Below are positions 32,327 to 60,438 of a stretch of 64,000 nt of DNA, piece after piece (within the stretch, counting starts at the first letter, position 1; each line of letters opens with the position of its first letter). Source of the DNA: Candidatus Omnitrophota bacterium (lineage in GTDB: Bacteria > Omnitrophota > Gorgyraeia > Zapsychrales > Zapsychraceae); assembly GCA_020632515.1 (NCBI GenBank), contig JACKFK010000004.1, positions 192,068 to 256,067 of the forward strand. Reading direction: 5' to 3'. The translations under genes were made by a program, and so were the position numbers. The notes under the pieces are model-generated. The model searched no databases, was not told the DNA's origin, and saw nothing but the letters and a program-made list of their open reading frames with translations.

Positions 32327-32355
32327 TTGACAATGTGGATATATGGTATTATAGT
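32327..32355 (+). promoter_or_regulatory. sigma70-type promoter of AAA+ ATPase 1
   Basis: TTGACA-17 nt-TATAGT. The GTG at 32335 used by the ORF track lies inside the spacer. Confidence 0.65.
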
Positions 32356-32391
32356 TATACTGCAAATGATATATATGAAATTATGGTAAAC

Positions 32392-33696
32392 ATGATTATT
32401 CAACGTGATATTATACACAAAATTAAACCTTTTTTAGAGCGCAGGGAATGTTTAGCCCTTATCGGCCCGCGGCAGACAGGAAAAACTACTCTTTTACAGC
32501 TAATTACAGACTATTTATATAAAGAAAAAAATGTTGATAAGGAATTGGTAAAGAGGATCAGTTTTGAAGACCGGAAACTGTTGTTTCAATTTGAAAAAGA
32601 TCCTTGTGAATTTGTTAGATCTTATTGGCCGGGGGCTGCCAAGCAAACGTTTTACTTTATGATTGATGAGTTTCAATACGCCAGCGAAGGTGGACAAAAG
32701 TTAAAACTGATTTATGACACCTTTACCAATCTTAAGCTATTGATTACAGGATCATCATCTCTGGATCTGCGGGCGCAGGTGGGAAAATATATGGTAGGAC
32801 GGATATTGAGTTTTTATATTTATCCGTTTAATTTTCATGAAATCTTAAAAACGAGGTCTTCTCGTTTAGAACGCGCTTACGCACGGCAAAACAAACAAAT
32901 TAAAAATTGGCTCTTTGAAAATCAACCCCTGGATTTGAAAAAAGGTGATGATTTGTTACACGAGGAAATGACAAAAGCCTTTGAAGATTACTGTGTTTGG
33001 GGCGGGTACCCGCAAATTGTCCTTACAGAAGATATTGAACAAAGAAAGAAAGTTTTAAATGATCTTTATAACAATTATCTTTTAAAAGACATTAAAACAT
33101 CATTAGAGTTGGCCACAGAAAAAGAGCTTTATAAACTTTCGCAATATATCGCGACACAGGTAGGACAGATTACGGTTTATCAGAATTTATCTCAGGCCTC
33201 AGGGCTTGAGTACCGGACTTTAAAAAAGCATTTATCGATTTTAGAAGAAACATTTATTATTAAAAGTGTAACGCCGTTTTTCAGAAATAAACAGAAAGAG
33301 CTGTCGCGGAATCCTAAAATATTTTTCTTGGATATGGGGTTTCGCAACGCGCTTATCGACGATATCAATGATCTGGAAAAAAGGCCCGATGCCGGGAACA
33401 TGGTGGAAAATACGGTATATGTACAGCTTTTAAAAAACTTTATACAGGCTGATAAATTAAATTTTTACCGGACTAAAATGGGCTCAGAAATTGATTTTAT
33501 CACATGGAATAACCACGCCATTATTCCAATGGAAGTTAAATATAAAGTTTTTAAACAAGAGCAGATTTCTAAAGGATTTCGTAGTTTTATTGAGCAGTTT
33601 AAGCCGGAGAAGGCCATTGTTTGGACAAAGAACTTCTGGGGGATGCTCGAAGAAAATGGAACGCAGATTTTGTTTGCACCGGGGTATTATTGTTAA
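32392..33696 (+). CDS. AAA+ ATPase, COG1373 type (AAA_14 + DUF4143), paralog 1
   Basis: Walker A GPRQTGKTTLLQ and Walker B FYFMIDEFQY. The start was moved to ATG 32392 (32383 is also possible) because of the upstream promoter. Confidence 0.8.
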   Translation: MIIQRDIIHKIKPFLERRECLALIGPRQTGKTTLLQLITDYLYKEKNVDKELVKRISFEDRKLLFQFEKDPCEFVRSYWPGAAKQTFYFMIDEFQYASEGGQKLKLIYDTFTNLKLLITGSSSLDLRAQVGKYMVGRILSFYIYPFNFHEILKTRSSRLERAYARQNKQIKNWLFENQPLDLKKGDDLLHEEMTKAFEDYCVWGGYPQIVLTEDIEQRKKVLNDLYNNYLLKDIKTSLELATEKELYKLSQYIATQVGQITVYQNLSQASGLEYRTLKKHLSILEETFIIKSVTPFFRNKQKELSRNPKIFFLDMGFRNALIDDINDLEKRPDAGNMVENTVYVQLLKNFIQADKLNFYRTKMGSEIDFITWNNHAIIPMEVKYKVFKQEQISKGFRSFIEQFKPEKAIVWTKNFWGMLEENGTQILFAPGYYC

Positions 33697-34078
33697 GTTG
33701 CTAGAAAAGATCGCAAAGTGACCTTGTGACTTTCTGAAAGTTGACGACTGAAAGTGAAAGCTAAGAGTCGGACAACTGACACGGTGCCATTGTGACAAAA
33801 GTTTCAGATTTGAGTTGTTTTGACGCTGTGGCTTTTACACGGTGACTTTGTGACACAAGTTTCAGATTTGGGTTGTTGTGACATTGTGACTTGTCGATAG
33901 CTAAGAACCGGATAACTGACACGGTGCCATTGTGACAAGAGTTTCAGATTTGAGCTGTTGTGACCTTGTGACTTGTTGACAGCTGACATCTGAATTGATT
34001 AAAACCGTAAACAAACCTCCGAGGTTTGTTTGTGGTTAAGAACCGGATAACTGACAATTCGACATTTCAGATTGTTAT
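33697..34078 (+). repeat. intergenic repeat mosaic S8
   Basis: TAAGTTGCTAGAAAA at the stop and inverse heptamers. Three 58-nt GTGAC-box units at 33779-33836, 33837-33894 and 33919-33976. The 31-nt palindrome is also present. Confidence 0.92.
34005..34035 (+). repeat. 31-nt palindromic hairpin element, copy b
   Basis: CCGTAAACAAACCTC-C-GAGGTTTGTTTGTGG. The two non-Watson-Crick positions are G.U-compatible on the + strand only. Confidence 0.85.
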
Positions 34079-34107
34079 TTGACAAAATGACTATCATACT
34101 GTATAAT
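34079..34107 (+). promoter_or_regulatory. consensus sigma70-type promoter of AAA+ ATPase 2
   Basis: TTGACA-17 nt-TATAAT, both hexamers perfect. Confidence 0.75.
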
Positions 34108-34150
34108 TACTTTATAAAATGATATTATTTATTGAGGATAAGGGGCAGAA

Positions 34151-35350
34151 ATGATTGATTTTAAGGCCATCTTTGAATATGACCGTTTAGCCAAAGAAGA
34201 AGGAAAGAAATATCAGAAACGACGATTTTTTTATAATGAAATCGTGCAAACGCAGGGAAAACATTTCACTGGTATTCTGGGTGCCCGCGGAGTAGGTAAA
34301 ACAATTTTATTAAAACAGCTGGCTTGTGAACAGCCGCAGTCACTTTATGTTTCTCTGGATGCGGTTGATGTTGATCTTTTTGAACTGGCTAAGAAAGCCA
34401 AAGAAGAGTTTAAGATTCAATCGCTGTTGCTGGATGAGGTGCACTTTCATCCGCGATTCCAGGAAAATCTGAAGAAAATTTATGATTTTTTGGATATTCA
34501 AGTAATTTTTACCAGCTCTATTGCCTTAGCGTTAATTGAATCGCAATATGATCTTTCACGAAGGGTTTTGTTAAAGAAGTTATATCCGTTTTCATTTCGT
34601 GAATATCTTTATTTTAAATATGACGTGGAATTTCCTTCGCTGACATTTGATCAGATTATTCAAAAGGAAGTAGATTCAAAATTCTTTTCCTACAGTCAGA
34701 ATTTTAGTGATTATCTGCAAGGAGGTATTTTCCCTTTTGCCATTGAAGAACCGTTTGTTTTGGATTTGCTTAAGAATGTGGCTGCTAAAGTTATTCGTAA
34801 AGATATTCCCCGCGTCACTGATATCAGTGTATCGGAAATTGAAATTATCGAAAAAGTGCTTCAGTTTATCGGAACATCCGGGATTGATGGAATTAATTAT
34901 TCATCGATCTCACAGAACTGCGGCATTACTAAATATAAAGCGCAGCAATATGTCGAGTTGTTAGAAAAAGCGTTTATTATTCATCAGATTTTTCCTAAAG
35001 GAACAAATGTGCTGAAAGAGCCGAAGATTTTAATGGCTGTTCCCTATCGCTTGCTTTACACGGATTTTCAAAGGGCTTTAGGAGGATTAAGAGAAGATTT
35101 TCTTGTGGAAATGATGCGTTCTTTGGGGAAAGAAATTTATTATTTGAAATCAACCCGCGGCCAAAAAACACCGGATTATTTGTTAACACATCAACAGAAG
35201 AATGTTGTTGTTGAAGTCGGGGGAAAAGGAAAAGGCCGACAGCAGTTTAAAGGGATTGTGCCTGACCAGAAAATCATCGCTGCCGACGCGGTAACATTTG
35301 ATGAATTGCGCCGTCCGTTATTTTTGTTTGGATTTTTAAGTGATAAATAA
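34151..35350 (+). CDS. AAA+ ATPase, COG1373 type, paralog 2
   Basis: Walker A GARGVGKTILLKQ, Walker B LLLDEVHF, and LYPFSFREYL as in the other paralogs. Confidence 0.75.
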   Translation: MIDFKAIFEYDRLAKEEGKKYQKRRFFYNEIVQTQGKHFTGILGARGVGKTILLKQLACEQPQSLYVSLDAVDVDLFELAKKAKEEFKIQSLLLDEVHFHPRFQENLKKIYDFLDIQVIFTSSIALALIESQYDLSRRVLLKKLYPFSFREYLYFKYDVEFPSLTFDQIIQKEVDSKFFSYSQNFSDYLQGGIFPFAIEEPFVLDLLKNVAAKVIRKDIPRVTDISVSEIEIIEKVLQFIGTSGIDGINYSSISQNCGITKYKAQQYVELLEKAFIIHQIFPKGTNVLKEPKILMAVPYRLLYTDFQRALGGLREDFLVEMMRSLGKEIYYLKSTRGQKTPDYLLTHQQKNVVVEVGGKGKGRQQFKGIVPDQKIIAADAVTFDELRRPLFLFGFLSDK

Positions 35351-35648
35351 GTCTCCTGTCGCCAGGAGACAGTGATCAGTAAGAAACAACCGATTCAACT
35401 TCGTAAGTTGAACTAGGTTTACTTGTGACTTTCTGAAATCTGACAGCTGAAAGCTAAGAACCGGATAACTGACACGGTGACATTGTGACAAGAGTTTCAG
35501 ATTTGAGTTGTTTTGACGTTGTGACTTTTACACGGTGACTTGGTGACACAAGTTTCAGATTTGAGCTGTTGTGACTTTTTGACAGCTACGCACCGGATAA
35601 CTGACACAGTGACATTGTGACTTTTGTACGAAACATGAAAGGATTTTT
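35351..35648 (+). repeat. intergenic repeat mosaic S9
   Basis: Hairpin GTCTCCTGTCGCCAGGAGAC (35351-35370), the 33-nt hairpin, inverse heptamers and two tandem GTGAC-box units, ending in GTGACATTGTGAC just before the gmd RBS. Confidence 0.9.
35388..35420 (+). repeat. 33-nt hairpin motif, copy 2
   Basis: AACCGATTCAACTTCGTAAGTTGAACTAGGTTT, identical to copy 1. Confidence 0.85.
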
Positions 35649-36737
35649 ATGACAAAAAAAGCGCTTATAACCGGCGTGACCGGACAAGATGGGGCTTATT
35701 TAGCAGAATTATTATTAGATAAAGGCTATGAGGTGCACGGCATCAAACGCCGCAGTTCATTATTTAACACGCACCGGATTGATCATCTTTATAGAGATTT
35801 ACACGAACGCGGGGTAAAGTTTAAACTTCATTACGGCGATATGACGGATTCCACCAATTTGATCCGCATTATTCAGGAAGTTCAGCCGGATGAGATTTAT
35901 AATTTAGCCGCGCAATCGCATGTTCAAGTTTCGTTCGAAACCCCGGAATACACCGCCAATGCCGACGCGCTGGGCACCTTGCGTGTTTTAGAGGCGATTC
36001 GTATTCTGAAACTGGAAAAGAAAACTAAAATTTATCAAGCGTCCACGTCGGAGCTTTACGGCAAGGTGCAAGAGATTCCTCAGCGGGAAACCACACCGTT
36101 TTATCCGCGCAGTCCCTATGGTGTGGCCAAACTCTACGCGTATTGGATCACGGTCAATTATCGCGAGGCATACGGTATGTTTGCTTGCAACGGAATTTTG
36201 TTCAACCACGAATCACCGATCCGTGGAGAAACCTTTGTTACGCGTAAAATCACCCGCGCGGCCAGCCGGATCAAATGCGGCTTGCAGCAAAAACTATATT
36301 TAGGAAATCTTGATGCCAAACGCGATTGGGGTCATGCTAAGGATTATGTGGAAGGCATGTGGCGTGTCTTGCAGCAAAAGCAGCCGGATGATTATGTATT
36401 GGCGACCGGCAAAACCCAGTCGGTGCGGGAGTTTGTGGAATTTGTTTTCACGGAGCTTGGCATCAGTATTAAGTGGAAGGGTAAAGGCATTCATGAAAAA
36501 GGCATTGATCAAGAAAGCGGCAAGAGTTTGATTGAAGTGGATAAAAAGTATTTTCGTCCGACGGAGGTGGATATCCTTTTAGGGGATGCGTCCAAGGCGC
36601 GCCGAAAATTAAAGTGGAAACCGAAATACACCATGCAGGAATTAGCTAAAGAAATGGTGGCCGCGGATTTGGCCGAGGCCGAAAAAGAAGCGCATCTGAA
36701 AGGAAAAGGCTATTCGGTGTTGGAGTTTAATGAATAA
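35649..36737 (+). CDS. gmd: GDP-mannose 4,6-dehydratase
   Basis: [35 protein letters not shown]...STSELYG...[10 protein letters not shown]. Confidence 0.95.
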
Positions 36738-36850
36738 AAGTCGCAAAGTCACCGTGTCAGCTTTCAGCTATCAGTCTTCAGCGATCAGAAAACCACAAAC
36801 AAACCTCCGAGGTTTGTTTGTGGTTAAGAACCGAATAACTGACTTACTAT
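36738..36850 (+). repeat. intergenic repeat mosaic S10
   Basis: GTCGCAAAGTCAC, CAGNNNT heptamers, the 31-nt palindrome and TTAAGAACCGAATAACTGAC. Confidence 0.9.
36793..36823 (+). repeat. 31-nt palindromic hairpin element, copy c
   Basis: CCACAAACAAACCT-CCG-AGGTTTGTTTGTGG, a perfect 14-bp stem. Confidence 0.85.
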
Positions 36851-37894
36851 ATGAATAAAAACGCACGCATTTACATTGCCGGCCATCGCGGGATGGTGGG
36901 CTCAGCGATCACACGCAAATTAGAAGCCGAAGGCTATACGAATCTGCTTAAGCGCACGCATAAAGAATTGGATTTAACGCGCCAGCAAGAGACTGAAGAT
37001 TTCTTCGCGCGGGAAAAGCCGGAGTATGTTTTTATTGCGGCCGCCCGTGTGGGCGGGATTATGGCCAACAGCACGTATAAGGCGGACTTTATTTATCAGA
37101 ACATCATGATCGCGGCCAATATCATTGAAGCCTCACGTAAGTTCGGTGTAAAAAAACTTTTAAATCTTGGCTCGACGTGCATTTATCCTAAGCTGGCGCC
37201 GCAGCCGTTAAAAGAAGAATCTCTGCTGACCGGTCCGTTAGAACCGACCAACGATGCGTATGCCGTGGCCAAGATCAGCGCGATCCGCTTGTGTCGGCAT
37301 TATAATGAACAGCATGGCACCAATTTTATTTCCGCGATGCCGACGAATCTTTATGGGCCTAATGATAATTATGATCTGTTTGCGTCACATGTATTGCCGG
37401 CCATGATCCGTAAATTTTATTTAGCCAAAAAATTGGCAGAGAATGATTTCACTGCCATTGCCAACGATTTTAAAAAACGAGGGTCATTAATTAAGGAAGG
37501 TCAGACAGAGTTGTCGAAAAAGGAGGTTGTGCCGGCACTTGCAAGTTTTGGGATTCGCGCGGATTCCGTCACATTATGGGGGACAGGTTCACCCTACCGG
37601 GAATTTCTTCATGCCGATGATTTAGCCCAGGCGTGTTTATTTTTGCTGCTCAACTGCGATGCTAAAGATATTGGGGAATTTGTCAATGTTGGCAGCGGTC
37701 AAGAGCATACCATCAAAGAAATAGCCGTCATGGTTAAAGACATTGTTGGGTTTTCCGGGGAAATCACCTGGGATACATCCAAACCTGACGGCACCCCGCG
37801 TAAAATCAGCGACGTTTCCCGCATTAACAAACTCGGCTGGCGCAGCACTATTGACCTTAAGACTGGGATTGAAAGCGTTGTTCGAGAGTTGTAA
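36851..37894 (+). CDS. fcl: GDP-L-fucose synthase (GDP-4-keto-6-deoxymannose 3,5-epimerase/4-reductase)
   Basis: RIYIAGHRGMVGSAI...FIAAARVGGIMAN...YAVAKI...PTNLYGPNDNY. About 25 aa of insertion relative to typical Fcl. Confidence 0.9.
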   Translation: MNKNARIYIAGHRGMVGSAITRKLEAEGYTNLLKRTHKELDLTRQQETEDFFAREKPEYVFIAAARVGGIMANSTYKADFIYQNIMIAANIIEASRKFGVKKLLNLGSTCIYPKLAPQPLKEESLLTGPLEPTNDAYAVAKISAIRLCRHYNEQHGTNFISAMPTNLYGPNDNYDLFASHVLPAMIRKFYLAKKLAENDFTAIANDFKKRGSLIKEGQTELSKKEVVPALASFGIRADSVTLWGTGSPYREFLHADDLAQACLFLLLNCDAKDIGEFVNVGSGQEHTIKEIAVMVKDIVGFSGEITWDTSKPDGTPRKISDVSRINKLGWRSTIDLKTGIESVVREL

Positions 37895-37898
37895 GAGT

Positions 37899-37931
37899 AA
37901 CCGATTCAACTTCGTAAGTTGAACTAGGTTT
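37899..37931 (+). repeat. 33-nt hairpin motif, copy 3 (mosaic S11)
   Basis: AACCGATTCAACTTCGTAAGTTGAACTAGGTTT lies 4 nt after the fcl stop. Confidence 0.85.
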
Positions 37932-37939
37932 GCGCTTAG

Positions 37940-37968
37940 TTGACATGTCGTATAAAATAATGTATATT
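37940..37968 (+). promoter_or_regulatory. sigma70-type promoter of AAA+ ATPase 3 (leaderless or near-leaderless mRNA)
   Basis: TTGACA-17 nt-TATATT. The -10 box ends 5 nt before ATG 37974 and 8 nt before ATG 37977. Confidence 0.65.
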
Positions 37969-37973
37969 TTACG

Positions 37974-39233
37974 ATGATGAGCGATAATTTACATAAATAT
38001 AGGAGTTTGACAGCGTTTTTACCTGATCTTAAGCGTAAGGGACTGATTTTATTAACAGGAGCGCGGCAGACTGGAAAAACAACCTTGGCTAAGAAGCATT
38101 ATAAGGGGTTACGCTATATTAATTTGGACGCGCCGGAAAATCGGGAAGTGCTTAAGGCGGTAGCGTCAGCGAATTGGAGCCGGGATATTGGTCCTGCGGT
38201 TATTGATGAAGCGCAAAAAGAGCCTGAAATCTTTGAAAAAATAAAATATGCTTTTGATGCTCAAGGGATTTCAACCAGTGTTCTATTAGGGTCAAGTCAG
38301 ATTTTATTGATCAAGAAAATCCGGGAATCTTTGGCTGGTCGGATCAGTATTTATGAAATCTGGCCGCTAATGCTGTCGGAGTTATTCGCTACAGGGCAGA
38401 ACGATTATCAAAACCCTTTGTGCGACCAGCTGCTTTCGGCCGCGGATGTGAATGATGTATTGGCAAATATTCCAGCTGTCTTGCTTGAGACAGAAAATTT
38501 AAAACGCCGGGAAGCGCAGGAACATCTTTTTTGCTGGGGAGGCATGCCCGCATTGCTGCATCTGCCGCCGCAAGAGCGTTTTAAATGGTTAAAAGATTAT
38601 GAATATACCTATCTGGAGCGGGATCTTGGCGATTTAGCCCGATTGGATGATTTAGAACCGTTTCGTAAATTTCAAAAACTTTCCGCGTTGCGTTCAGCGC
38701 AATTGTTAAGTTACGCGGAGATTGCCAGAGACGCCGGGATCAGCGTGGACACAGCCCGACGGTATTTGGAATATTTGAGGTTGTCATATCAGGTTATTTT
38801 GCTGCAGCCGTATCATTCAAATTTAACCAGTTCTGTGGTTAAGACACCGAAATTATATTGGCTGGATATTGGTTTGTTAAGACAGTTAAGCGGTAATAAA
38901 GAAGGTCGTGAAGGTGGTTTATATGAAACAATGGTGGTCGCAGAGATTGTTAAATGGATTAAAACAGCGCAGCGGGAATGTGAAATTTATTTTTACCGGA
39001 CCCGGGCCGGGATGGAAGTGGATGTTTTGCTTCAGACCGCCAAGGGTGTTATAGGTGTGGAAATTAAAAGCCGGGATCGATTAGCCGCGAAAGACACCAC
39101 CGGGCTTAAAGCTATCGCGAAGAAATTGGGAGCAAAGTGGAAAGCCGGGATTGTTCTTTATAATGGAGATGAAATTAGGAAAATCGAAGAGCCGGATATT
39201 TGGGCGGTTCCCAGTCATCGGTTTTTTGGTTAG
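37974..39233 (+). CDS. AAA+ ATPase, COG1373 type, paralog 3
   Basis: Walker A GARQTGKTTLAKK, Walker B AVIDEAQK, and ESLAGRISIYEIWPL. The start may be the second ATG (37977). Confidence 0.8.
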   Translation: MMSDNLHKYRSLTAFLPDLKRKGLILLTGARQTGKTTLAKKHYKGLRYINLDAPENREVLKAVASANWSRDIGPAVIDEAQKEPEIFEKIKYAFDAQGISTSVLLGSSQILLIKKIRESLAGRISIYEIWPLMLSELFATGQNDYQNPLCDQLLSAADVNDVLANIPAVLLETENLKRREAQEHLFCWGGMPALLHLPPQERFKWLKDYEYTYLERDLGDLARLDDLEPFRKFQKLSALRSAQLLSYAEIARDAGISVDTARRYLEYLRLSYQVILLQPYHSNLTSSVVKTPKLYWLDIGLLRQLSGNKEGREGGLYETMVVAEIVKWIKTAQRECEIYFYRTRAGMEVDVLLQTAKGVIGVEIKSRDRLAAKDTTGLKAIAKKLGAKWKAGIVLYNGDEIRKIEEPDIWAVPSHRFFG

Positions 39234-39565
39234 TATTTCAGTCTTCGGTCGCCAGGAGAGATCAAGTCGCAAAGTCGCAAAGTCACAAGGTCACAAGGTC
39301 ACAAGGTCACAAGGTCACAAAGTTTCCAGATTTCAAATACGGTGGCTTTGTGACTATCAGCCATCAGCGTTCAGCTATCAGCTATCAGAAGAAAAAAATC
39401 TGATCGCTGAAATCTGAAAGCTGACGACTGAAAGCTAAGAGCTGGATAAGTGACATGGTGACATTGTGACTTTTTCACGGTGACTTTGTGACTAGAGGAT
39501 TAGATTTGGATTGATGTGACTTTGTGACTTGTTGAAAGCTAGGAGTCGGATAACTGACTTTACCC
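39234..39565 (+). repeat. intergenic repeat mosaic S12
   Basis: Degenerate CCAGGAGAG hairpin and seven 8-mers (39266-39321). A heptamer array holds a second intact IS-target-like site (CATCAGCGTTCAG|CTATCAG, junction 39374/39375). An A-rich centre is followed by inverse heptamers and a GTGAC-box unit. Confidence 0.9.
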
Positions 39566-39594
39566 TTGTCTAATGAGCGTTAATAGTGTATAAT
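39566..39594 (+). promoter_or_regulatory. sigma70-type promoter of abiEi-abiEii
   Basis: TTGTCT-17 nt-TATAAT. Confidence 0.6.
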
Positions 39595-39602
39595 TTCAGT
39601 AT

Positions 39603-39621
39603 ACTGTCAAAATATGACAGT
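39603..39621. promoter_or_regulatory. palindromic operator candidate (AbiEi autoregulation)
   Basis: ACTGTCA-aaata-TGACAGT lies just downstream of the -10 box. A further TGACAG half-site is at 39644-39649. Confidence 0.45.
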
Positions 39622-39634
39622 TTTATGAAAAAAT

Positions 39635-40267
39635 ATGAAAGTTTTGACAGAGCTAATTTTAGATAATTATAAAAGTGATATTCTAACCACTGCAGATGTG
39701 GTCACTTTGTCTAAAGGGTCTTCGGATCGACGTTACGGTCTGGTTAAGCGGGCTTTGGCGGCAGAGGAGATTATCCAAATTCGAAGAGGCCTGTACTATT
39801 TAGCAAAGAAGTATCAGCGTGGGCCAATGAATTTGTTTGCTTTAGCCCAGAGAATCTATGGACCGTCATATATTAGTTTTGAATCGGCTTTATCGTATCA
39901 TGGCTGGATTCCGGAGGCTGTTTATCTTACGGCGAGTGCCAGTATTCGTAAAGCAATAAGATACACAACCCCGTTAGGGATTTTTGATTATAAGCGGATT
40001 CCTTGCGCAGATTTTTTCTATGAGGTTAATCGGATTCAAAATGAAGCAGAGGATATTTTTTTTATGGCTTCACCGATTAGAGCTTTGGTTGACTATATTT
40101 ATGTTTATAAAAAAGATTGGCCGGATTTAAAGGCTATTGCGCAAGACTTGAGAATTGAACCGGAAAATTTTAATGAAATTAAAAAAGAAGCATTGCAAGG
40201 TTTTAAGGAAAATTTTAAAAGCCGCAGAGTTAAACGGTTTATTAAGATGCTGGAAGGGAACGTTTGA
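39635..40267 (+). CDS. abiEi: AbiEi-family antitoxin / transcriptional regulator
   Basis: N-terminal wHTH-like LTTADVVTLSKGSSDRRYGLVKRALAAEEIIQIRRGLYYL. Overlaps the downstream AbiEii gene by 4 nt. Confidence 0.75.
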   Translation: MKVLTELILDNYKSDILTTADVVTLSKGSSDRRYGLVKRALAAEEIIQIRRGLYYLAKKYQRGPMNLFALAQRIYGPSYISFESALSYHGWIPEAVYLTASASIRKAIRYTTPLGIFDYKRIPCADFFYEVNRIQNEAEDIFFMASPIRALVDYIYVYKKDWPDLKAIAQDLRIEPENFNEIKKEALQGFKENFKSRRVKRFIKMLEGNV

Positions 40268-42718: not shown

Positions 42719-42861
42719 TGAGAGGAATTAAATTAATCATTGTATATATCAGTATAGTAGTTTTTAGTATAAATAATGATTATTCTTAAATATTTATTTT
42801 TTGTGGGAAGCTTTTAATAATAAAAAATAAAGTAGATGACTTTCTAAAATATGAGACATAC

Positions 42862-43443: not shown

Positions 43444-43491
43444 TGAAGGTAAAGGAAATTTAGATTGATTTAATATTAAAAAATAAATTTT

Positions 43492-47441: not shown

Positions 47442-47462
47442 TTTTTGCAGTAAGGAGGTGGA

Positions 47463-48599: not shown

Positions 48600-48694
48600 A
48601 AAGGTGTTTTTAATACTTAATAAATGCTATATATTTTGAAATTTAGATTTTTCAATATATATTCGTGTGATTAGATTAAGGAATTGATTAAAAA

Positions 48695-49876: not shown

Positions 49877-49915
49877 TCAGAGTGATGAATAAAATAGTAT
49901 GAAAGGTTTAAGAGT

Positions 49916-51364: not shown

Positions 51365-51390
51365 TTAACCTTTAACCTAAATGAGTAAAT

Positions 51391-52500: not shown

Positions 52501-52503
52501 GCA

Positions 52504-53625
52504 ATGAATATGAAAGATCGTCCAAAAATTAAAATCCTCCATCTTCTATGGACAGGGCATTCAGGGGGGATGGAGAAATTTGTTTATGATATCACCAGGT
52601 TTGCGGATCGTTCTCGTTTTGAGCATCAGGTGTGTTTTCTTGCTCAAGGTGGGTGGGTTGCTGATCAAATTCAGAAGAATGCCACTGAGGTGAAATATTG
52701 TTTGATGAAATCCGGTGGGTCTTTTTTTAAAAGTTTGAATTTATTTAAGATTATCAATGATTTTCAACCGCAAATCATTATGAATCATCAAAGAAATCTT
52801 TTATCCAATCTTTATCTGTCCTTTTTTTTTTATAATAAAGTAAAAATTTATTATGAACATGGAGGGAATCTTTTAAGTCAGGGTTCTAAGGTTACGCGGT
52901 TATTTTATAAGCTTTTTTCATGGCAATATCGCATGATCCTTACAAATTCTAATTTAGTGAAACAAAAGATTCAGGCTTTAAAGATTCCAGATGAAGATAA
53001 GGTTAATGTGTTATATTTAGGGATTGATGTTGATAAATATAGAAAAAAAGAACGGAATGAAGGTTTTTATGCAAAATTAGGGTTGGACCAAAAAAAGAAA
53101 ATCATTGGAGCTGTGGGAAGAATGGTTGAGCAAAAAGGATGGGATGATTTCTTGTCAGTCGCCAATGAAATTCAGTTGTTAGATCAGAACTATCAATTTT
53201 TAATTATCGGAGACGGGCCTTTAAGAAGCGAACTTGAAGCGAAATCAAAAGAAATGAGTTTAAGTGTGATGTTTCTTGGAAATAGAGAAGACGTTCAGGA
53301 TTTATTGCAAATATTTGATCTTTTTATGATGACATCCAAATGGGAACCTTTTGGTTTAACTGTCCTTGAGGCTTTGGCAGCAGAAGTTCCTGTTGTCGGG
53401 TATTATGTGGATGGAATGGGAGAGATCTTTGATCATGGCGGAGGTGGTGTTCTTCTTAAAGAACGAAATCCGCAGAAGTTAGCTCAAACAGTTATTGACA
53501 TATTTGCTGAAGAAGGGCGCTTAAGAACTTTTTCGCAAGAAGGCAAAAAGAATGTTGAATGTAATTTTGATATCAAAACCACAATACGGAATTTAGAAAA
53601 ATATTATCTTCAATTAGTGCAATGA
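52504..53625 (+). CDS. family 4 glycosyltransferase
   Basis: KILHLLWTGHSGGMEKF N-terminus and EX7E motif EPFGLTVLE. Confidence 0.85.
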   Translation: MNMKDRPKIKILHLLWTGHSGGMEKFVYDITRFADRSRFEHQVCFLAQGGWVADQIQKNATEVKYCLMKSGGSFFKSLNLFKIINDFQPQIIMNHQRNLLSNLYLSFFFYNKVKIYYEHGGNLLSQGSKVTRLFYKLFSWQYRMILTNSNLVKQKIQALKIPDEDKVNVLYLGIDVDKYRKKERNEGFYAKLGLDQKKKIIGAVGRMVEQKGWDDFLSVANEIQLLDQNYQFLIIGDGPLRSELEAKSKEMSLSVMFLGNREDVQDLLQIFDLFMMTSKWEPFGLTVLEALAAEVPVVGYYVDGMGEIFDHGGGGVLLKERNPQKLAQTVIDIFAEEGRLRTFSQEGKKNVECNFDIKTTIRNLEKYYLQLVQ

Positions 53626-54860: not shown

Positions 54861-57306
54861 GCGGATCAATCCATTTTTAGTGGCGGCATTATGTTTGGGG
54901 ATTTATTTAGTAAAGTCCATGATCGGTATTGATATTTTAAAAGATTATAGCTTCAGTCAGTGGCTGCCGTTTCGTTTGAATTTGGTAGATCACAGTTATG
55001 CCGCGCAGAAAGATTTTGAGTTTAATGAAGAGTTCTTAAGTAAAGCTGCCGTGGAAAAAGAATTCAATTTATGGATGCGGGATACAGATGCGGTTACTTA
55101 TGAGGTTCAGAAGTCGTGTGAGAAGCAAAACGGGTGTTTGCTCATTGAAAATCAAGGCCGGGAAGACTGGGCCTTTGAATTGAATAAATTCGTTCATGTT
55201 GTTCAGGGGGATGTTTTTGAATATTCTTTTTCCGGGAAGATAAAAGACGGAGCAGCGCAAGCATCATTTGGAGTTGTGCTTTTTGACAGCGAGAAAAAGG
55301 TGTTGGATTGGCATTATCTTCGTCAGGAATTAAACGCTGATAAAGAATGGCAGAGTTTTGAAGGGAAGTTTATTGTTCCGGCTAAAACCGCTATGATTAA
55401 ATTTCGTGTAACTGGTAAAGATACGGGAAAAGTTTGGTTCGATAGAATGAATATTAAATTTGAGCGTAATTTGCAAGAGGATCGCAAAGAATTGCTGCCA
55501 GATTATAGTTTGTCAAACAAACTTGTGAAATATACGTTGGATTGGAAGAAGGAAATTATACAGGTTATTGATCAAAGGAATCAAAAATTATGGCAGGATA
55601 AAGATTCGTTACAGCGGGTGTTTGTCAGGAAAATTGAAAAGATTAATCAGGATTCTTTAAAAGTTATGTTTGTAAGTTATCGGAATTTTCAGGAAGGAAC
55701 AGCGATCATTACTATCAAACCGGATTCCCCCGAAATTTCGTATGAAATCTTAATGCCGGAAGATAGGGTTTTTGAATATTTGAATTTCCCCCAATTGTTT
55801 GATTTTAACGCATCGGTGGAGCTGGTTGTTCCGATGCAGGAGGGGATGCTGATTGATAAGACGTTTCCGTTTAAGGACTTTCCTAAAAGTTTATATTACA
55901 GCCGGCAGTGGTCAATGCCGTTTATCGGCGGGACAGATGGAAACGCTGGCTGGATGGCTATAGTGGAAACGCCGTATGATTTTCGGATAGTAAAAGCAAA
56001 AGATAAAGAAGGGAATTTGGTGTTAGAGAATCAATGGGTGGCTGAAAAAGAAAGGTTTAGTTATCCACGGAAAATGAAGTATGTTTTTGTGGATCAGGGC
56101 GGGTATGTGAAAATGGCCAAGATATATCGGGCTTACGCACGTCAGCAAGGAAAACTGAAAACTTTACGGAGTAAAGCGCAAGATAACGCTAATATTACAA
56201 AGTTAATTGGTGCTGTGAATTTATGGTATTGGGGAAAGGGGCACATTAAACTTGCCCGGGAATTGCAAAAACGAAATGTGCCCAAGGTATTTTTTTCCAA
56301 TATAAAATGGAATTTGGAAGAGGTGAATAATTTTAACTATTTAACGTCAAAATATGATATATATCAGGACGTTTGGCCGCCGGATTTATCGGGTGTCGCC
56401 CCTAGAACGCAAGGCTGGCCAGAGGATTTGGTCGTGGATGTGAAGCAAAAACCGATTAAAGGATGGACAATAAAACGAAAAGGACAAGAATATCCAGGGG
56501 GTGTAATTTGTTCTATAAAGGGACTGGATATGGCGAGAAAGCGGATCGCAGAAGATTTGAAAAATTATCCGTATACAGGGCGGTTCATTGATACGGTTAC
56601 GGCTTCTCCGTGGAGAGAATGTTATCATCCGCAACATCCAACAACTAAGCGGGAAGACGCTGAGTATAAAATGGATTTATTAAATGTTGTATCGTATGAA
56701 ATGGGTTTGATTACCGGAAGTGAAGACGGCGTGGATGCAGCCGTTCCTTATGCTGATTATTTTGAAGGGATGATGAGTATTATTATCGGAAGGCTGCCGG
56801 ATTCCGGACGGGGTGTCCGTCAGGTAAAGTATGTTGCGCCGACTGAAGATTTTCTGAAGTATCAAATAGGGTATCAATACCGGATTCCGTTATGGGAATT
56901 GGTTTATCATGATTGTATTGTTTCAACTTGGTATTGGGGAGATTCTTCGAATAAGATTCCGGAATATTTGAACCGCAGGAATTTATTTAATATTTTATAC
57001 GGGAATATGCCGATGTGGACATTGCGTGATTGGAAACATTGGACAGAACAGAAAGATGTGTTGATTGAAAGTTATTATCATGTCGGGCCGGTCTTTGAAA
57101 AAGTTGGATTTGAAGAAATGGTCGCGCATGAGTTTGTAACACCGGATCGCAGTGTGCAGAGATCTCAATTTAGCAACGATGTGAATGTGTATGTAAATTT
57201 TAGTGAGCAGAAATTTGAACTCGGTGAAGAGTTGGGAAAGGTTCCTGCTCACGGTTATGTCATTTTTGATAAAAATAAGGTCTGGCAAGAAGGAGAATTA
57301 AATTGA
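54847..57306 (+). CDS. membrane-anchored protein with carbohydrate-binding-module-like domain and large glycoside-hydrolase-like C-terminal region
   Basis: N-terminal TM FLVAALCLGIYLV and a jelly-roll/CBM-like segment (aa ~90-200: WAFELNKF...KFRVTGKDTGKVWFDRMNI). The remaining ~600 aa has acidic and aromatic motifs (GSEDGVD, WYWGD), but the family was not recognised. Confidence 0.35.
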   Translation: MSMFKRINPFLVAALCLGIYLVKSMIGIDILKDYSFSQWLPFRLNLVDHSYAAQKDFEFNEEFLSKAAVEKEFNLWMRDTDAVTYEVQKSCEKQNGCLLIENQGREDWAFELNKFVHVVQGDVFEYSFSGKIKDGAAQASFGVVLFDSEKKVLDWHYLRQELNADKEWQSFEGKFIVPAKTAMIKFRVTGKDTGKVWFDRMNIKFERNLQEDRKELLPDYSLSNKLVKYTLDWKKEIIQVIDQRNQKLWQDKDSLQRVFVRKIEKINQDSLKVMFVSYRNFQEGTAIITIKPDSPEISYEILMPEDRVFEYLNFPQLFDFNASVELVVPMQEGMLIDKTFPFKDFPKSLYYSRQWSMPFIGGTDGNAGWMAIVETPYDFRIVKAKDKEGNLVLENQWVAEKERFSYPRKMKYVFVDQGGYVKMAKIYRAYARQQGKLKTLRSKAQDNANITKLIGAVNLWYWGKGHIKLARELQKRNVPKVFFSNIKWNLEEVNNFNYLTSKYDIYQDVWPPDLSGVAPRTQGWPEDLVVDVKQKPIKGWTIKRKGQEYPGGVICSIKGLDMARKRIAEDLKNYPYTGRFIDTVTASPWRECYHPQHPTTKREDAEYKMDLLNVVSYEMGLITGSEDGVDAAVPYADYFEGMMSIIIGRLPDSGRGVRQVKYVAPTEDFLKYQIGYQYRIPLWELVYHDCIVSTWYWGDSSNKIPEYLNRRNLFNILYGNMPMWTLRDWKHWTEQKDVLIESYYHVGPVFEKVGFEEMVAHEFVTPDRSVQRSQFSNDVNVYVNFSEQKFELGEELGKVPAHGYVIFDKNKVWQEGELN

Positions 57307-58448
57307 AAATCGTTGTCATTGGTACCAGAGGGTTTCCTAATGTTCAAGGTGGTGTCGAAAGCCATTGTGAACATTTATACCCAAATATTGTGTTGCATGG
57401 TGGCGATGTTACAGTGATTGGTCGCAAACCATATTTATCGCCGCAGGTGACGGAATATAAGAAAGTGAAGATTGTGCATAAAGAATGCACAACCAATAAA
57501 TATCTGGAAGCTATTTCTCACACGTTTTCCGGAGTTTTTGAAGCTAAAAAATTAAACGCCGATATTTTGCATATTCACGCGATTGGCCCGTCGATTATGA
57601 CTCTGGTAGCTAAACTGATGGGATTAAAAGTTGTGGTTACTAATCATGGTCCGGATTATGTCCGGTCGAAATGGAATTTATTTGCCAAGATAATTTTAAA
57701 GTTGGGAGAGTTTTTCGGCAGTAAAATGGCCAATGAAGTGATTTGTATTTCCAATCCTATAGCAGAAAGTATTGAAAAGAAATATAAACGGAACGTTAAT
57801 GTTATTCCTAATGGCGTTATTATTGAAGACCGTGTGGAAAGTAAAGAGTTTTTGAAAAAACATCATCTCACTGATCATAAATATATTTTGTGTGTCGGAC
57901 GGTTGGTGCCGGAAAAAGGGTTTCATGATTTAATCGACGCCTTTAATCGAATAACGAACGGGCAAGATCAATTGAATTCCTGGAAGCTGGTTGTTGTGGG
58001 CGACGCTGATCATGAAGGGAAATATAGTTTGGAGTTGAAGGATAAAGCGAAGCAAAATCCAAATGTTATATTAACAGGAACGTTAAAGGGGCAGGCTTTG
58101 CGAGAGGTTTTTTCGCATGCCGGTCTTTTTGTTTTACCATCTTACCATGAAGGCTTACCAATCGTTCTGCTGGAGGCGATGAGTTTCGGCCTTTCCTGTA
58201 TTGTTTCCGATATCCCGGCCAACCGCAATGTCGGCTTATCAGAGGACCGGCATTTTAAAGCCGGGGATATTGAAGCTTTAGCGGCAAAGATTAAAAAATA
58301 CATGAGTGTTGAATTTTCCGAAAGCGAATCTAAGGCTCAGATTGAAATGATTCGTCAGAATTATGATTGGGATCATATCGCGGAAAAAACGGTTGATGTG
58401 TATAATGCCGTGCTTAATCGGAAAAAGCGGGAAATGCAGCTGGTATAA
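57303..58448 (+). CDS. family 4 glycosyltransferase with DUF1972-like N-terminal domain
   Basis: MKIVVIGTRGFPNVQGGVESHCEHLYP N-terminus and EX7E motif EGLPIVLLE. Confidence 0.85.
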   Translation: MKIVVIGTRGFPNVQGGVESHCEHLYPNIVLHGGDVTVIGRKPYLSPQVTEYKKVKIVHKECTTNKYLEAISHTFSGVFEAKKLNADILHIHAIGPSIMTLVAKLMGLKVVVTNHGPDYVRSKWNLFAKIILKLGEFFGSKMANEVICISNPIAESIEKKYKRNVNVIPNGVIIEDRVESKEFLKKHHLTDHKYILCVGRLVPEKGFHDLIDAFNRITNGQDQLNSWKLVVVGDADHEGKYSLELKDKAKQNPNVILTGTLKGQALREVFSHAGLFVLPSYHEGLPIVLLEAMSFGLSCIVSDIPANRNVGLSEDRHFKAGDIEALAAKIKKYMSVEFSESESKAQIEMIRQNYDWDHIAEKTVDVYNAVLNRKKREMQLV

Positions 58449-58469
58449 ACGGCATGATGATCCTCTCTA

Positions 58470-58501
58470 AACCGATCCAACTTCCGAAGTTGAACTAGGT
58501 C
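58470..58501 (+). repeat. 33-nt hairpin motif, copy 4 (variant)
   Basis: AACCGATCCAACTTCCGAAGTTGAACTAGGTC lies between convergent genes. Its CTA (58495-58497) is the stop codon of the minus-strand DUF2442 gene. Confidence 0.8.
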
Positions 58502-58746
58502 TTTCTTTGAATAATCTCTCGATATAGAGTGTCGGGAGCGATATCTGCTCCATTTGGCCAGCAAATAGTTCCTAATTCTTCATTGACATAGAATTTGTTA
58601 AAATTTTTCTTATTAAGCAGTTGAGCAAATACTCCTCGGCCTAAATATTTTCTAAGATCCACGCGGCCTTTTTTCTTATTATCAAATATAAATTCGACCA
58701 TATAATCTTTAATTAGTTTAGCTTTTTTTACTTCATGTATTTCCAT
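58495..58746 (-). CDS. DUF2442-family small protein
   Basis: ...YMVEFIFDNKKKGRVDLRKYL...ELGTICWPNGADIAPDTLY is typical of DUF2442. Paired with the DUF4160 gene upstream. Confidence 0.7.
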   Translation of the reverse strand: MEIHEVKKAKLIKDYMVEFIFDNKKKGRVDLRKYLGRGVFAQLLNKKNFNKFYVNEELGTICWPNGADIAPDTLYREIIQRKT

Positions 58747-58753
58747 AATTACA

Positions 58754-59014
58754 TTACTCCAAAGGTTTAATAGTTTTTAATTTTCCGTCTTTTTGCGCTC
58801 TATCCCAATTATCTAATAATTCTTTTTGATGTTTCCTAGCCCAGTCTCTAATGAGGCGTTTTGCTAAAGGTGGTAAGTCGCCACCCATTATTCTGCCAGA
58901 TTTAATTTGAAAGACAGCAATGCGTCCTTGATACTTGGCATGAAAATGAGGAGGATTATGATCTTTAAAAAACATCATTATCGATATTCCATAAAAACGG
59001 GAGATTATTGGCAT
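58754..59014 (-). CDS. DUF4160-family small protein
   Basis: MPIISRFYGISIMMFFKDHNPPHFHAKYQG is the hallmark DUF4160 N-terminus. Confidence 0.75.
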   Translation of the reverse strand: MPIISRFYGISIMMFFKDHNPPHFHAKYQGRIAVFQIKSGRIMGGDLPPLAKRLIRDWARKHQKELLDNWDRAQKDGKLKTIKPLE

Positions 59015-59053
59015 GTTGAAATTATAACATATAAAATAAACACTGCAACCGGC

Positions 59054-59122
59054 CTACGTTAAATTTGTATGGAACAAAAGTAAAGCAGCCATAATAATAT
59101 TGGCGTCAATAATCAGTTTCAT
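59054..59122 (-). pseudogene. 22-codon remnant of a PIN-domain (VapC-like) toxin gene
   Basis: The minus strand reads MKLIIDANIIMAALLLFHTNLT*. This is a PIN-like first strand with the conserved Asp, then a premature stop. The antitoxin-like upstream frame is cut by the hairpin motif at 59194. Confidence 0.3.
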
Positions 59123-59193
59123 TTTTTAGTTTTTTTTGTTGCCGTCCATTGTTTTCAGGTCCATAGGTAACGGCTTCTTCAGCGGTGAGGGTG

Positions 59194-59217
59194 CCCGAAG
59201 TTGAACTAGGTAGGTTT
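59194..59217 (+). repeat. 33-nt hairpin motif, copy 5 (3' half only)
   Basis: CCCGAAGTTGAACTAGGTAGGTTT abuts the stop of the minus-strand ATPase gene. Confidence 0.7.
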
Positions 59218-60399
59218 CTAGAGATTTTGTGTTACAGAATGTATATTCTCAAAAGTGATGAAATTGATTTCACAAGATTTATACATCACTTTCTTAGTTA
59301 GGTTTTCATTGATGATGTAAGCGTGCTTTGTGTTAGGGTAGCGCAGCAGGAATCTGGTGATTCCTTTTGGTATTTCGGGGGCGCTTACTGTGCTTTTTAC
59401 TTCTATTGGGGTTGGCATACGATTATGCAAAAGTATAAAATCAACTTCATCTCCGTCTTTTGTCCGCCAGAATTTTATTTCCATATTAGGTTCTAAGTAC
59501 GGAAGCAGTGCAAGGTAAACAAAGCTTTCATATAAAACTCCTTTATCTGGACGGGTTTTTATGGATGAGAAATCTTTAAGTAAAGCATTACGGATACCAA
59601 GATCATAGAGGTAATTTTTACAAGATTTTTTTAATTCGTTGCCGAGATTGGTGGAATAACTATGTACCCGAAAATTCACATATGTTTCTTCAAGAATATC
59701 CATATAGCGGCTAATTGCTTTCGCGCTTAAATTAATTTGGTTAGCCAGATTAGACATGGAAACAACAGATCCCTGATTTTGAGCGAGTAAATAAAGCAAA
59801 TGGTTAAAGGCGCGGATATTTTCTTCTTTAATAAGAGACTTAATATCTTTGAGGATATAACTGCTCAAGAGTTCGTCTAATATAAGTCTTTTTCGTTTAG
59901 GTTCTTTAGTGTTTGTAAGTCCTGGGAGTCCTCCATAAATTAAATAGTCTGAGAGGTGGCAGGGTATTTTTTTCATTTCTTCAAATGACAGCGGATAAAT
60001 ACGAAAAATGAATTTTCGCCCAGCCAGGCTTTCTTTAAGATGTTTATGGATTTCAATTGAAGATGATCCTGAGCAAATAATTTTAATTTTTTTGTCAGCA
60101 TCATAAATGGCTTTAAAGATTTTTGAGGCATTTTGAATGTATTGAAATTCGTCAATAAAAACGATATTACCGGAATTCTTTAAGATTTTAATAATTTCTG
60201 TTTCTGAATTATTAAATTGGGCAAGAATTTGTGGTTGCTCAAGATCAAAGAAAGAGGATGTAAGGCCTGATTCTTTAGCATAAGTTTGGAGCTGTTTTAA
60301 AAGGGTTGTTTTGCCAACCTGGCGTGGGCCCAGTAAAATATTAATTTCTGGTTGGTAAATTTCCTTTTGTAAGGTATTGAAAATAAATCGTTTAATCAT
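59218..60399 (-). CDS. AAA+ ATPase, COG1373 type, paralog 4
   Basis: Walker A GPRQVGKTTLLKQ, Walker B VFIDEFQY, and ESLAGRKFIFRIYPLSFEE. Confidence 0.8.
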   Translation of the reverse strand: MIKRFIFNTLQKEIYQPEINILLGPRQVGKTTLLKQLQTYAKESGLTSSFFDLEQPQILAQFNNSETEIIKILKNSGNIVFIDEFQYIQNASKIFKAIYDADKKIKIICSGSSSIEIHKHLKESLAGRKFIFRIYPLSFEEMKKIPCHLSDYLIYGGLPGLTNTKEPKRKRLILDELLSSYILKDIKSLIKEENIRAFNHLLYLLAQNQGSVVSMSNLANQINLSAKAISRYMDILEETYVNFRVHSYSTNLGNELKKSCKNYLYDLGIRNALLKDFSSIKTRPDKGVLYESFVYLALLPYLEPNMEIKFWRTKDGDEVDFILLHNRMPTPIEVKSTVSAPEIPKGITRFLLRYPNTKHAYIINENLTKKVMYKSCEINFITFENIHSVTQNL

Positions 60400-60409
60400 T
60401 GTATTGACT

Positions 60410-60438
60410 AATATAACCTATTTATTCAGAAAAGTCAA
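60410..60438 (-). promoter_or_regulatory. sigma70-type promoter of AAA+ ATPase 4
   Basis: The minus strand reads TTGACT-17 nt-TATATT. The -10 box ends 10 nt before the ATG, so the leader is very short. Confidence 0.6.

Follow-up and report, generated by a model that had tools for sequence, protein, structure and literature searches.

Four divergent AAA_14+DUF4143 ATPase genes in an Omnitrophota exopolysaccharide locus as probable self-contained PDC-S01 modules

A window of 64,000 nucleotides (nt) from the genome of a Candidatus Omnitrophota bacterium (GenBank assembly GCA_020632515.1, contig JACKFK010000004.1, positions 192,068 to 256,067), which we analyzed as a whole, contains four genes for AAA+ ATPases of the COG1373 family, here denoted ATPase1 to ATPase4, within and next to an exopolysaccharide locus. 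With a probability of roughly 0.6, each of these genes was acquired independently and forms a self-contained single-gene module of the PDC-S01 type, lodged in the flexible part of the locus and functioning as a defense-type unit. The defense-type reading is favored because all four proteins match PDC-S01 and because the neighbors of the ATPase3 orthologs are enriched in toxin-antitoxin, abortive infection (Abi), restriction and PDC-S01 genes. A first-pass annotation, made from the sequence alone, had described the four paralogs and proposed that autonomous, selfish or defense-type genes were inserted singly into an ancestral operon. Our analysis confirms the observation and supports the interpretation, given the portability of the units, the PDC-S01 matches, relatives with ATPase-free sugar gene clusters, and the GC content at third codon positions (GC3). 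The AAA_14+DUF4143 family itself is already catalogued; new here are the recurrence across phyla of what appears, from sequence comparison, to be a unit of promoter plus open reading frame (ORF), with a probable leaderless start and a putative self-operator, as well as the clustering of divergent paralogs and their embedding in non-defense operons.

The ATPases and their family

Intact ORFs encode ATPase1 (32392-33696, + strand), ATPase2 (34151-35350, +), ATPase3 (37977-39233, +) and ATPase4 (59218-60399, - strand), as annotated except at the starts. ATPase1 begins at 32392 or 32383, a GTG at 32335 being excluded by its position inside the promoter, and translation of ATPase3 most likely begins at the second ATG, at 37977, rather than at 37974 as first annotated; that start is kept in 40 orthologs. 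At Pfam gathering thresholds, all four proteins contain, from the N to the C terminus, AAA_14 (PF13173; 76-105 bits, cut-off 27) and DUF4143 (PF13635; 38-134 bits, cut-off 28.1). The paralogs are mutually 20-31% identical and share only 22-31% identity with ATPase1, so that they are not recent duplicates, in agreement with the first-pass annotation. The Walker motifs quoted there as common to all four are not kept in ATPase2, the most divergent paralog with the weakest DUF4143 match (38 bits), where Walker A reads GARGVGKT and Walker B LLDEVH. ATPase4 and the fucose synthesis protein Fcl from the same window are each 100% identical to proteins of a Candidatus Omnitrophica metagenome-assembled genome at NCBI.

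The annotation had suggested a search of PADLOC, and the PDC-S01 hidden Markov models (HMMs) of that resource match all four proteins end to end, with best E-values of 4e-80, 2e-26, 4e-89 and 1e-94 for ATPase1 to ATPase4. The statement that the function of the family is essentially unknown thus stands, with the addition that the family is already listed as a defense candidate. In the accessible parts of the respective reports, PDC-S01 is predicted through "guilt by embedding" (bioRxiv 10.1101/2024.01.29.577857), ranks as the fourth most common defense candidate across prokaryotes, and is described as an ATPase fused to a PD-(D/E)xK domain, experimental validation pending (PMC12988326). DUF4143 has been listed among the PD-(D/E)xK families with function unknown (PMC3424549), and a Thermus AAA_14/DUF4143 gene was upregulated 6.6-fold in the presence of plasmid DNA (PMC4406477).

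An AlphaFold2 model of ATPase3 (pLDDT 86.8, pTM 0.88) consists of three parts, namely, an AAA+ core, a helical region with a three-helix plus wing element (residues ~226-295), and a C-terminal alpha/beta domain. Strands 336-342, 347-353 and 358-363 of the latter bear D349, E362 and K364. In an alignment of 27 sequences, D349 and E362 are invariant, as are the G, K and T of Walker A and the D-E of Walker B, and K364 is nearly so (at least 90%). By its modeled fold and these residues, the C-terminal domain of ATPase3 is a PD-(D/E)xK nuclease. The question of such a domain, raised in the first-pass annotation, is thereby answered positively for three of the paralogs, in which the D...E[VI]K motif is intact (D...EVK in ATPase1, and likewise in ATPase3 and ATPase4); ATPase2 is taken up below.

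A sequence search detected no solved structure of any relative. The Foldseek matches of the whole ATPase3 model include Orc1/Cdc6 (2qby_A, E 1.9e-6), RuvB, MalT, CED-4/Apaf-1, McrB and STAND proteins. With Orc1/Cdc6 and the STAND-like NTPases (Avs, CED-4/Apaf-1 fold; top matches 2qby_A, 1w5s, 4m9s and 9jap), the ATPase shares an AAA+ core, a helical domain and a winged helix. The TM-scores are, however, 0.23-0.40, and the window proteins, at about 400 amino acids, combine the absence of sensor repeats with a C-terminal PD-(D/E)xK effector. The nSTAND3 and nSTAND5 models score only 16-20 bits against cut-offs of 27-34, and no repeat domains were found, so that the proteins do not classify as STAND NTPases. 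Can2 and VC1899 (1xmx, 8q3z and others) match as well, in comparisons made with the model as a whole; we take these to be PD-(D/E)xK effector nucleases, and the D...ExK motif of the window protein is a further point of likeness. Can2/Card1 and VC1899 are presumably effectors of type III CRISPR signaling with a CARF sensor, whereas the sensor of ATPase3 would be an AAA+ ATPase, no cyclic-oligoadenylate system lies nearby, and the global TM-score is about 0.2.

The promoter-plus-gene unit

Each of the ATPase genes is preceded by a sigma70-type promoter-like site. Scored against the sigma70 consensus, the sites of ATPase1 (32327-32355, +, TTGACA-17-TATAGT, 11/12), ATPase2 (34079-34107, +, TTGACA-17-TATAAT, 12/12) and ATPase3 (TTGACA-17-TATATT at 37940-37968, +, 11/12) are as strong as first described. 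The ATPase4 site (TTGACT-17-TATATT, 60438-60410, -) reaches 10/12 and is one of 13 scoring 10 or 11/12 in the AT-rich 45-64 kb portion, so that its score alone is unremarkable; this promoter is kept in relatives of 78-81% identity. The site reported upstream of the abiEi/abiEii pair is present (39566-39594, +, TTGTCT-17-TATAAT) with a score of 10/12. Across the entire window, 7 sites reach at least 11/12, compared to 3.4 +/- 2.0 in shuffled sequences. The four on the + strand each lie directly upstream of an accessory gene, that is, ATPase1, ATPase2, ATPase3 and a TacA-like pair, and none precedes any of the ~40 biosynthetic genes. Consistent with the annotation, which had found nothing comparable there, no + strand site of even 9/12 was found in the spacers that precede cysC, cysQ, gmd and fcl. 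The total numbers of promoter-like sites are not above chance (40 vs 44; 89 vs 77; 62 vs 66); the non-random feature is the placement of the best sites, not their number.

We compared the unit across genomes for the lineages of ATPase3 and ATPase4. In a scan in which each species was represented by a single genome, 45 ATPase3 orthologs with 53-65% identity were obtained from at least 11 phyla (Omnitrophota, Desulfobacterota, Planctomycetota, Fibrobacterota, Nitrospirota, Calditrichota, KSB1, Gammaproteobacteria, Dependentiae, Chlamydiota and Bacteroidota). The identity is flat across phyla, indicating horizontal spread. Aligned at the start codon, the upstream regions give the consensus tttCTTGacA-N17-TAaATT-TTACGAc.-ATGAGCGA. 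Conservation spans the interval from the -35 box to the stop codon, with an information content of zero upstream of the -35 box and no conserved sequence 3' of the stop codon. The -10 box and the ATG are separated by 8 nt, in the window as in the lineage, and no Shine-Dalgarno sequence was found in the lineage, which points to a transcript that is probably leaderless or nearly so.

In the ATPase3 lineage, the spacer and the start region together form a palindrome, ATCGTAAAATAT..GTATATTTTACGAT, that is perfect or nearly so in loci L022, L023 and L041 and is visible in the consensus; the candidate operator arms are ATCGTAAAAT..ATTTTACGAT. In the window, where the ATPase3 promoter region occupies 37940-37976, the palindrome is partial (TCGTATAA...TTTTACGA). 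The sequence AAGTTGAACTA upstream of the ortholog in L008 was taken as a coincidence.

For ATPase4, whose promoter region (60400-60441, -) lies within the inverted repeat TATTGACT...AGTCAATA, relatives at 81% and 78% identity sit in unrelated contexts, one beside purB and the other in tandem with another paralog, followed by a Rieske/cytochrome b operon. All that the three contexts have in common is tATTGACT-N13-AGGTTAyATTAGTCAAT-N3-ATG and the ORF that follows, with the palindrome spanning the promoter and the ATG located 10 nt past the -10 box. The palindromes differ between the two lineages, which would fit each winged helix reading its own promoter. Taken together, these sequence comparisons support the view that ATPase3 and ATPase4 are autonomous units in which the promoter travels with the gene.

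Two further features of the window touch these genes. The ATPase2 promoter region (34085-34145) contains the direct repeat AAAATGAyTATyAT twice, about 33 nt apart; it is not palindromic, and its arrangement makes an operator of different design possible. An antisense site of 11/12 (TTAACA-17-TATAAT, 38852-38880, - strand) lies inside the ATPase3 coding sequence.

The neighborhoods of the orthologs are varied and frequently defense-related. One ortholog is found between AbiEi/Eii on one side and NYN, RadC and a type I restriction-modification (RM) system on the other, another in an integrase-bounded island with a HigB-like gene, and others in nucleotide-sugar operons. In a Pfam census of 137 flanking ORFs, the top families are AAA_14/DUF4143, sugar epimerases and transferases, and AbiEii, with PvuRts1I/SRA, PemK, BrnT, HicA and DUF2442 also ranking. 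A second divergent paralog occurs within 6 kb in 8 of the ~43 ortholog loci. Such clusters, with 23-33% identity over a few kilobases, were seen in L018, L032, L034, L041, L050, L051, L054 and L059, with three paralogs in 10 kb in L041. Sugar genes lie near ~8 of 43 ATPase3 ortholog loci; enrichment of the orthologs at polysaccharide loci relative to the background is no more than a lead.

Family members of ~30% identity were found on 133 plasmids and are rare in phage records. IMG/VR contained no close relatives of ATPase1, ATPase2 or ATPase4, and among 50,697 phage records, ATPase3 had only three distant matches; viral carriage was ruled out on these grounds. In L019, L045 and L054 (Fibrobacter and Smithella; ~7255-7370), the ATPase3 ortholog follows a complete small sugar transferase gene, and right past its stop codon lies a fragment encoding the C terminus of another sugar transferase, which suggests that these ATPases were inserted into, or replaced, a transferase gene.

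Insertion into the sugar locus

The exopolysaccharide locus extends over ~58 kb (1-58.4 kb), all on the + strand, and encodes a BBP2-type porin, Poly_export, a Wzc-like kinase, a priming sugar transferase, many glycosyltransferases, two Wzy and two Wzx proteins, as well as wecB, cysC, cysQ, gmd and fcl. Accessory genes are interleaved at 26-42 kb and 58.4-61.6 kb. The host-type genes in question are cysC (APS kinase; 28078-28677, +, GC3 0.49), cysQ (Inositol_P family; 31303-32103, +, 0.45) and gmd with fcl (GDP-fucose synthesis; 35649-37894, +, 0.51). Against this range of 0.45-0.51, GC3 is 0.24-0.37 in the interleaved accessory genes and 0.43 in ATPase3.

The comparison of the gmd-fcl-cysQ region with relatives, which the first-pass annotation had put forward, gave two ATPase-free clusters and one with a different ATPase lineage. 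In one Omnitrophica relative, manC-gmd-fcl-ugd-cysQ-cysD-cysNC-cysC are contiguous, with no ATPase or other accessory gene, and in a second relative, gmd and fcl are adjacent and clean. A third Omnitrophota genome has, in the gmd/fcl interval, a gene of a fifth ATPase lineage (~25% identity) that possesses a TTGACA-17-AATAAT site of its own and stops 12 nt before fcl. In a fourth (L064 6245-8000; ENA ERZ28655704, scaffold_3), gmd and fcl are separated by a 327-amino-acid ORF without a Pfam match, and this unrelated insertion is flanked by a ~300 bp target duplication that takes in the spacer together with the 5' end of fcl. The presence/absence pattern among relatives and the GC3 contrast indicate that the ATPases are variable insertions and that the gmd/fcl neighborhood is a recurrent landing place. 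The L064 spacer is built from inverted arrays of octamers that recall, in style, the GTCACAAR arrays of the window. Exact look-ups of the ATPase3 and Fcl proteins for strain variants yielded nothing but contigs of 1.1-1.4 kb with breaks at the repeats. We considered and rejected the idea that ATPase3 and fcl are syntenic in other Omnitrophota, since L011 and L012 have a different epimerase gene upstream, whose product is 32% identical to that of the gene at 41774.

The same region could be read in terms of the pathway itself, with the ATPases serving as accessories or regulators of polysaccharide synthesis, for example as DNA-binding switches for gmd, fcl and downstream genes, or being retained since their strong promoters drive these genes. 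Different lineages do sit beside gmd, fcl or sugar epimerase/dehydrogenase genes in at least four Omnitrophota genomes (the window; L010/L012, L011 and L065), ATPase1-3 share the strand of the operon with no intrinsic terminator predicted after them on the + strand, and the biosynthetic genes have no recognizable promoters of their own. This reading would, however, have to accommodate orthologs of 60-81% identity in an RM/Abi island, in an integrase island, beside purB and before a Rieske/cytochrome b operon, the two ATPase-free gmd-fcl(-cys) clusters, a GC3 unlike that of the adjoining biosynthetic genes, and a conserved nuclease active site that one would not expect in such a role. We regard it as the least probable of the explanations considered here.

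The first-pass annotation had also described the insertions as bounded by repeats. This holds for the spacers around ATPase1-3, which lie in a zone of host intergenic mosaic repeats (26250-41770) made up of 15 direct-repeat families, among them hairpin A (GTCTCCTGTCGCCAGGAGAC) and arrays of (GTCACAAR)n and of its inverse. The GTGAC-type mosaic is, however, confined to ~20-42 kb and occupies every spacer there, including that between gmd and fcl, and it was found neither beside ATPase4 nor beside orthologs elsewhere; it is a host intergenic repeat system outside the ATPase units. Copies of hairpin A are located at 27796-27815, 31084-31103 and 35351-35370, with degenerate copies near 28794 and 39241; they follow IS110, ATPase2 and ATPase3. 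Hairpin A reads as an intrinsic terminator on the - strand only and, judging from this asymmetry, could block antisense transcription while letting sense read-through pass. In its short palindromic and arrayed units, varied order and placement in spacers within operons, the mosaic resembles REP/BIME elements; it differs from these in that its sequences are lineage-specific and that the window encodes no RAYT-type transposase.

A distinct 33-nt element, motif B (AACCGATTCAACTTCGTAAGTTGAACTAGGTTT), occurs seven times in the window, always on the + strand: between cysC and a nucleotidyltransferase/HEPN pair (28830-28862), 37 nt past the ATPase2 stop and before gmd (35388-35420), 4 nt past the fcl stop, with the -35 box of ATPase3 following after 8 nt (37899-37931), as a variant between the last glycosyltransferase gene and a DUF2442/DUF4160 pair (58470-58502), as a right half only, 6 nt beyond the ATPase4 stop (59194-59213), as a variant separated by 9 nt from the -35 box of ATPase4 and by 13 nt from the TacA promoter that follows it (60448-60480), and as a variant after a TetR-CMD-MAPEG module (63710-63742). 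A scan allowing up to 3 mismatches gave 15 matches, compared to 5.9 +/- 2.3 in shuffled sequences, five of them exact, and none of 100 shuffles reached the observed count. Every copy marks a junction of compositionally different modules, host-type versus accessory, and copies approach the borders of the ATPase3 and ATPase4 units to within 6-9 nt. Conservation is stronger in the right half than in the hairpin, and two copies fold no better than shuffled sequences, which argues for a sequence-specific role rather than an RNA hairpin.

These properties raise the alternative that the ATPases arrived as cassettes captured by site-specific recombination at motif B, in the manner of integrons or dif sites, and not via illegitimate or homologous recombination. 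In addition to the number, orientation and placement of the copies, the better conserved right half and the single half-site, the core of motif B fits RYYYAAC/GTTRRRY by eye, and the contig of a related strain (L061) ends in a copy that combines the left flank of the ~63710 copy with the right side of the ~60448 copy. The latter observation rests on ~9 informative bases at an assembly break. Integron attC sites are tens of nucleotides long, with paired core sites much further apart than in motif B. With 33 nt, a single short palindrome and 7-mers only 7 nt apart, motif B does not fit this architecture. No tyrosine recombinase was found in the window, where IS110 is the only integrase or recombinase. 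Pattern scans of 185,579 species genomes gave no match, and the only one in metagenomes, in non-bacterial-looking DNA, was judged to be due to chance. Motif B appears to be lineage-specific: it was not found beside ATPase orthologs elsewhere, and it is missing from the cysQ/ATPase1, ATPase1/ATPase2 and ATPase3/abiE junctions of the window. On account of the architecture, the lack of genome matches, of an integrase and of any Rfam match, we rejected motif B as an integron attC site or widespread element, and we consider cassette capture in general distinctly unlikely.

The accessory genes other than the ATPases comprise toxin-antitoxin or Abi pairs and two IS110 copies. A nucleotidyltransferase and HEPN-like (NTase_sub_bind/HepT) toxin-antitoxin pair is located at 28889-29556 (+), the abiEi/abiEii pair (toxin-antitoxin or abortive infection), with the promoter-like site given above, at 39566-41133 (+), a toxin-antitoxin-like pair of small DUF4160/DUF2442 genes at 58495-59014 (-), and a TacA-like gene with a DUF6036 nucleotidyltransferase at 60494-61554 (+), preceded by a TTGACA-16-TATACT site (11/12). 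Two IS110-family transposase genes of equal length (26569-27600 and 29857-30888, both +) belong to a segmental duplication (26263-27990 versus 29551-31280, offset 3,288 bp) that also contains the flanking mosaic repeats; the insertion sequence lies within a AGCTATCAG-type repeat module. No tRNA and no Rfam match was found in the window, and known RNAs and tRNA-derived att sites were dismissed on this basis.

Farther from the ATPases, a 205-bp tandem repeat (6341-6974; 3.1 copies, 99% identity) fills part of a 0.8-kb gap between two polysaccharide genes, and each copy contains a TTTACG-17-TATAAT promoter-like site on the - strand. The sub-cluster at 42860-53600, with genes for an acetyltransferase, Wzx, an AsnB-like protein, glycosyltransferases and Wzy, has a GC content of 27-32% and GC3 of 0.17-0.26, compared to 37-46% GC in the rest of the locus, and by its composition looks like a horizontally acquired, serotype-specific block. 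L061 (GCA_020430025.1, contig JAGQKR010000225.1) is 99.7% identical to 56942-61630 and then jumps to a match at 63676-63732. It lacks the ~2-kb TetR-CMD-MAPEG module, a strain-level polymorphism with its break at a 35-nt direct repeat (ttgtaaattaaattgRcaatttctccattata; window 61591-61625 and 63546-63580).

Proposed function and implications

We observe directly the family assignment, the domain architecture, the catalytic motif in three of the four paralogs, the cross-phyla unit, the variable context, and the presence or absence of the genes in relatives. The scheme that we propose goes further and would add leaderless transcription, autoregulation, a trigger, a nuclease target and a defense phenotype. 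In each module, a near-consensus sigma70 promoter would lead straight into the ORF. With the start codon of ATPase3 and ATPase4 8-10 nt past the -10 box, the mRNA would be leaderless or nearly so, a design expressible in many hosts. The product, predicted to comprise an Orc1/Cdc6-like AAA+ ATPase, a helical linker with a winged helix, and a PD-(D/E)xK nuclease, would bind the palindrome in its own promoter through the winged helix and hold expression low by autorepression. Entry of foreign DNA or a phage would then lead to ATP-dependent assembly that turns the nuclease on nucleic acid, resulting in defense or abortive infection.

The window genes resemble PDC-S01, as described in the accessible parts of the published accounts, in the end-to-end HMM match, the combination of ATPase and PD-(D/E)xK domains, the occurrence as single genes among defense and toxin-antitoxin genes, and cross-domain horizontal transfer. 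They differ in that their host is a polysaccharide operon rather than an RM, BREX, DISARM or Hma system, and the conserved promoter, the palindrome, the putatively leaderless unit and the paralog clustering do not figure in those accounts. The free-standing AbiE-type toxin-antitoxin/Abi systems, next to which the ATPases are found both in the window and in L008, are likewise compact, each with a promoter of its own, from which it is autoregulated, plus an operator-like palindrome, and reside in flexible regions. By contrast, the ATPase is a single gene with no partner antitoxin, and its toxicity and autoregulation are putative.

Several observations weigh against a uniform, defensive module. 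ATPase2 has VEVGGK where the other three paralogs have E[VI]K, so that the catalytic lysine of (D/E)xK is not intact by comparison of the four, and ATPase2 may be catalytically altered. The 5' untranslated regions of ATPase1 and ATPase2 are ordinary, at ~37 nt, that of ATPase2 with an AAGGGG Shine-Dalgarno sequence, so the leaderless design is not general. The left arm of the ATPase3 palindrome is only moderately conserved, and the conserved TTTACGA of this lineage could instead serve initiation. Moreover, all promoters were scored against the sigma70 consensus, those of Omnitrophota being unstudied, so that promoter, leaderless start and operator are read from sequence. The best non-self match of Fcl is 71% identical, and the insertion events are deduced from comparison, neither dated nor seen directly; the recurrent placement of ATPases in sugar operons is open to readings besides an insertion hotspot. 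Finally, a PDC-S01 member assayed in Escherichia coli B against T4, T5 and T7 was, in the accessible part of the report, outside the four protective candidates (bioRxiv 10.1101/2024.09.26.614923), and the portions of the literature available to us report a demonstrated defense phenotype for no member of the AAA_14+DUF4143 family.

The negative heterologous assay, within the limits of that source, also speaks for the possibility that these genes are purely selfish, operon-embedding elements without a role in defense, maintained and spread in an addiction-like or homing-endonuclease-like manner. On this view, the embedding in RM and BREX systems to which the family owes its PDC label would come from a preference for inserting into variable multi-gene loci. 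The promoter-plus-ORF units are highly portable, and the genes are co-oriented with their hosts, with only 12 nt to the next gene and no terminator. The host operon is biosynthetic here and likewise in the sugar loci of other Omnitrophota, Fibrobacter and Smithella. The predicted combination of a nuclease with a sequence-specific DNA-binding domain would also suit such elements. Yet the surroundings of the 45 ATPase3 orthologs showed neither terminal repeats nor target duplications nor conserved flanks, which sets these genes apart from autonomous transposons; pairs of empty and filled sites were not observed, and the neighbors are typical of defense islands. We consider a purely selfish nature unlikely, though deserving of serious attention, and selfish and defensive roles are compatible with each other.

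A bolder combination of these ideas is that PDC-S01 genes in general are self-propagating operon-embedding genes, each a universally expressible unit that unites a consensus promoter and a self-operator with a leaderless ORF, in which the winged helix and the nuclease aid entry into variable multi-gene loci or persistence there, and that in the present Omnitrophota lineage motif B marks the sites at which such cassettes are exchanged along with toxin-antitoxin modules. We view this as very unlikely, somewhat more so than cassette capture. If true, part of the "guilt-by-embedding" signal would be insertion behavior and not immunity.

PDC-S01 is among the most abundant prokaryotic "defense systems", with its function undemonstrated. 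The present locus and its orthologs provide testable handles on it, namely, a minimal mobile unit, a predicted leaderless start, a candidate self-operator and an intact nuclease triad. The embedding of these genes in operons that have no part in defense calls for caution in pipelines that call defense from embedding alone. For Omnitrophota, the exopolysaccharide island emerges as a collecting point for defense and toxin-antitoxin modules.

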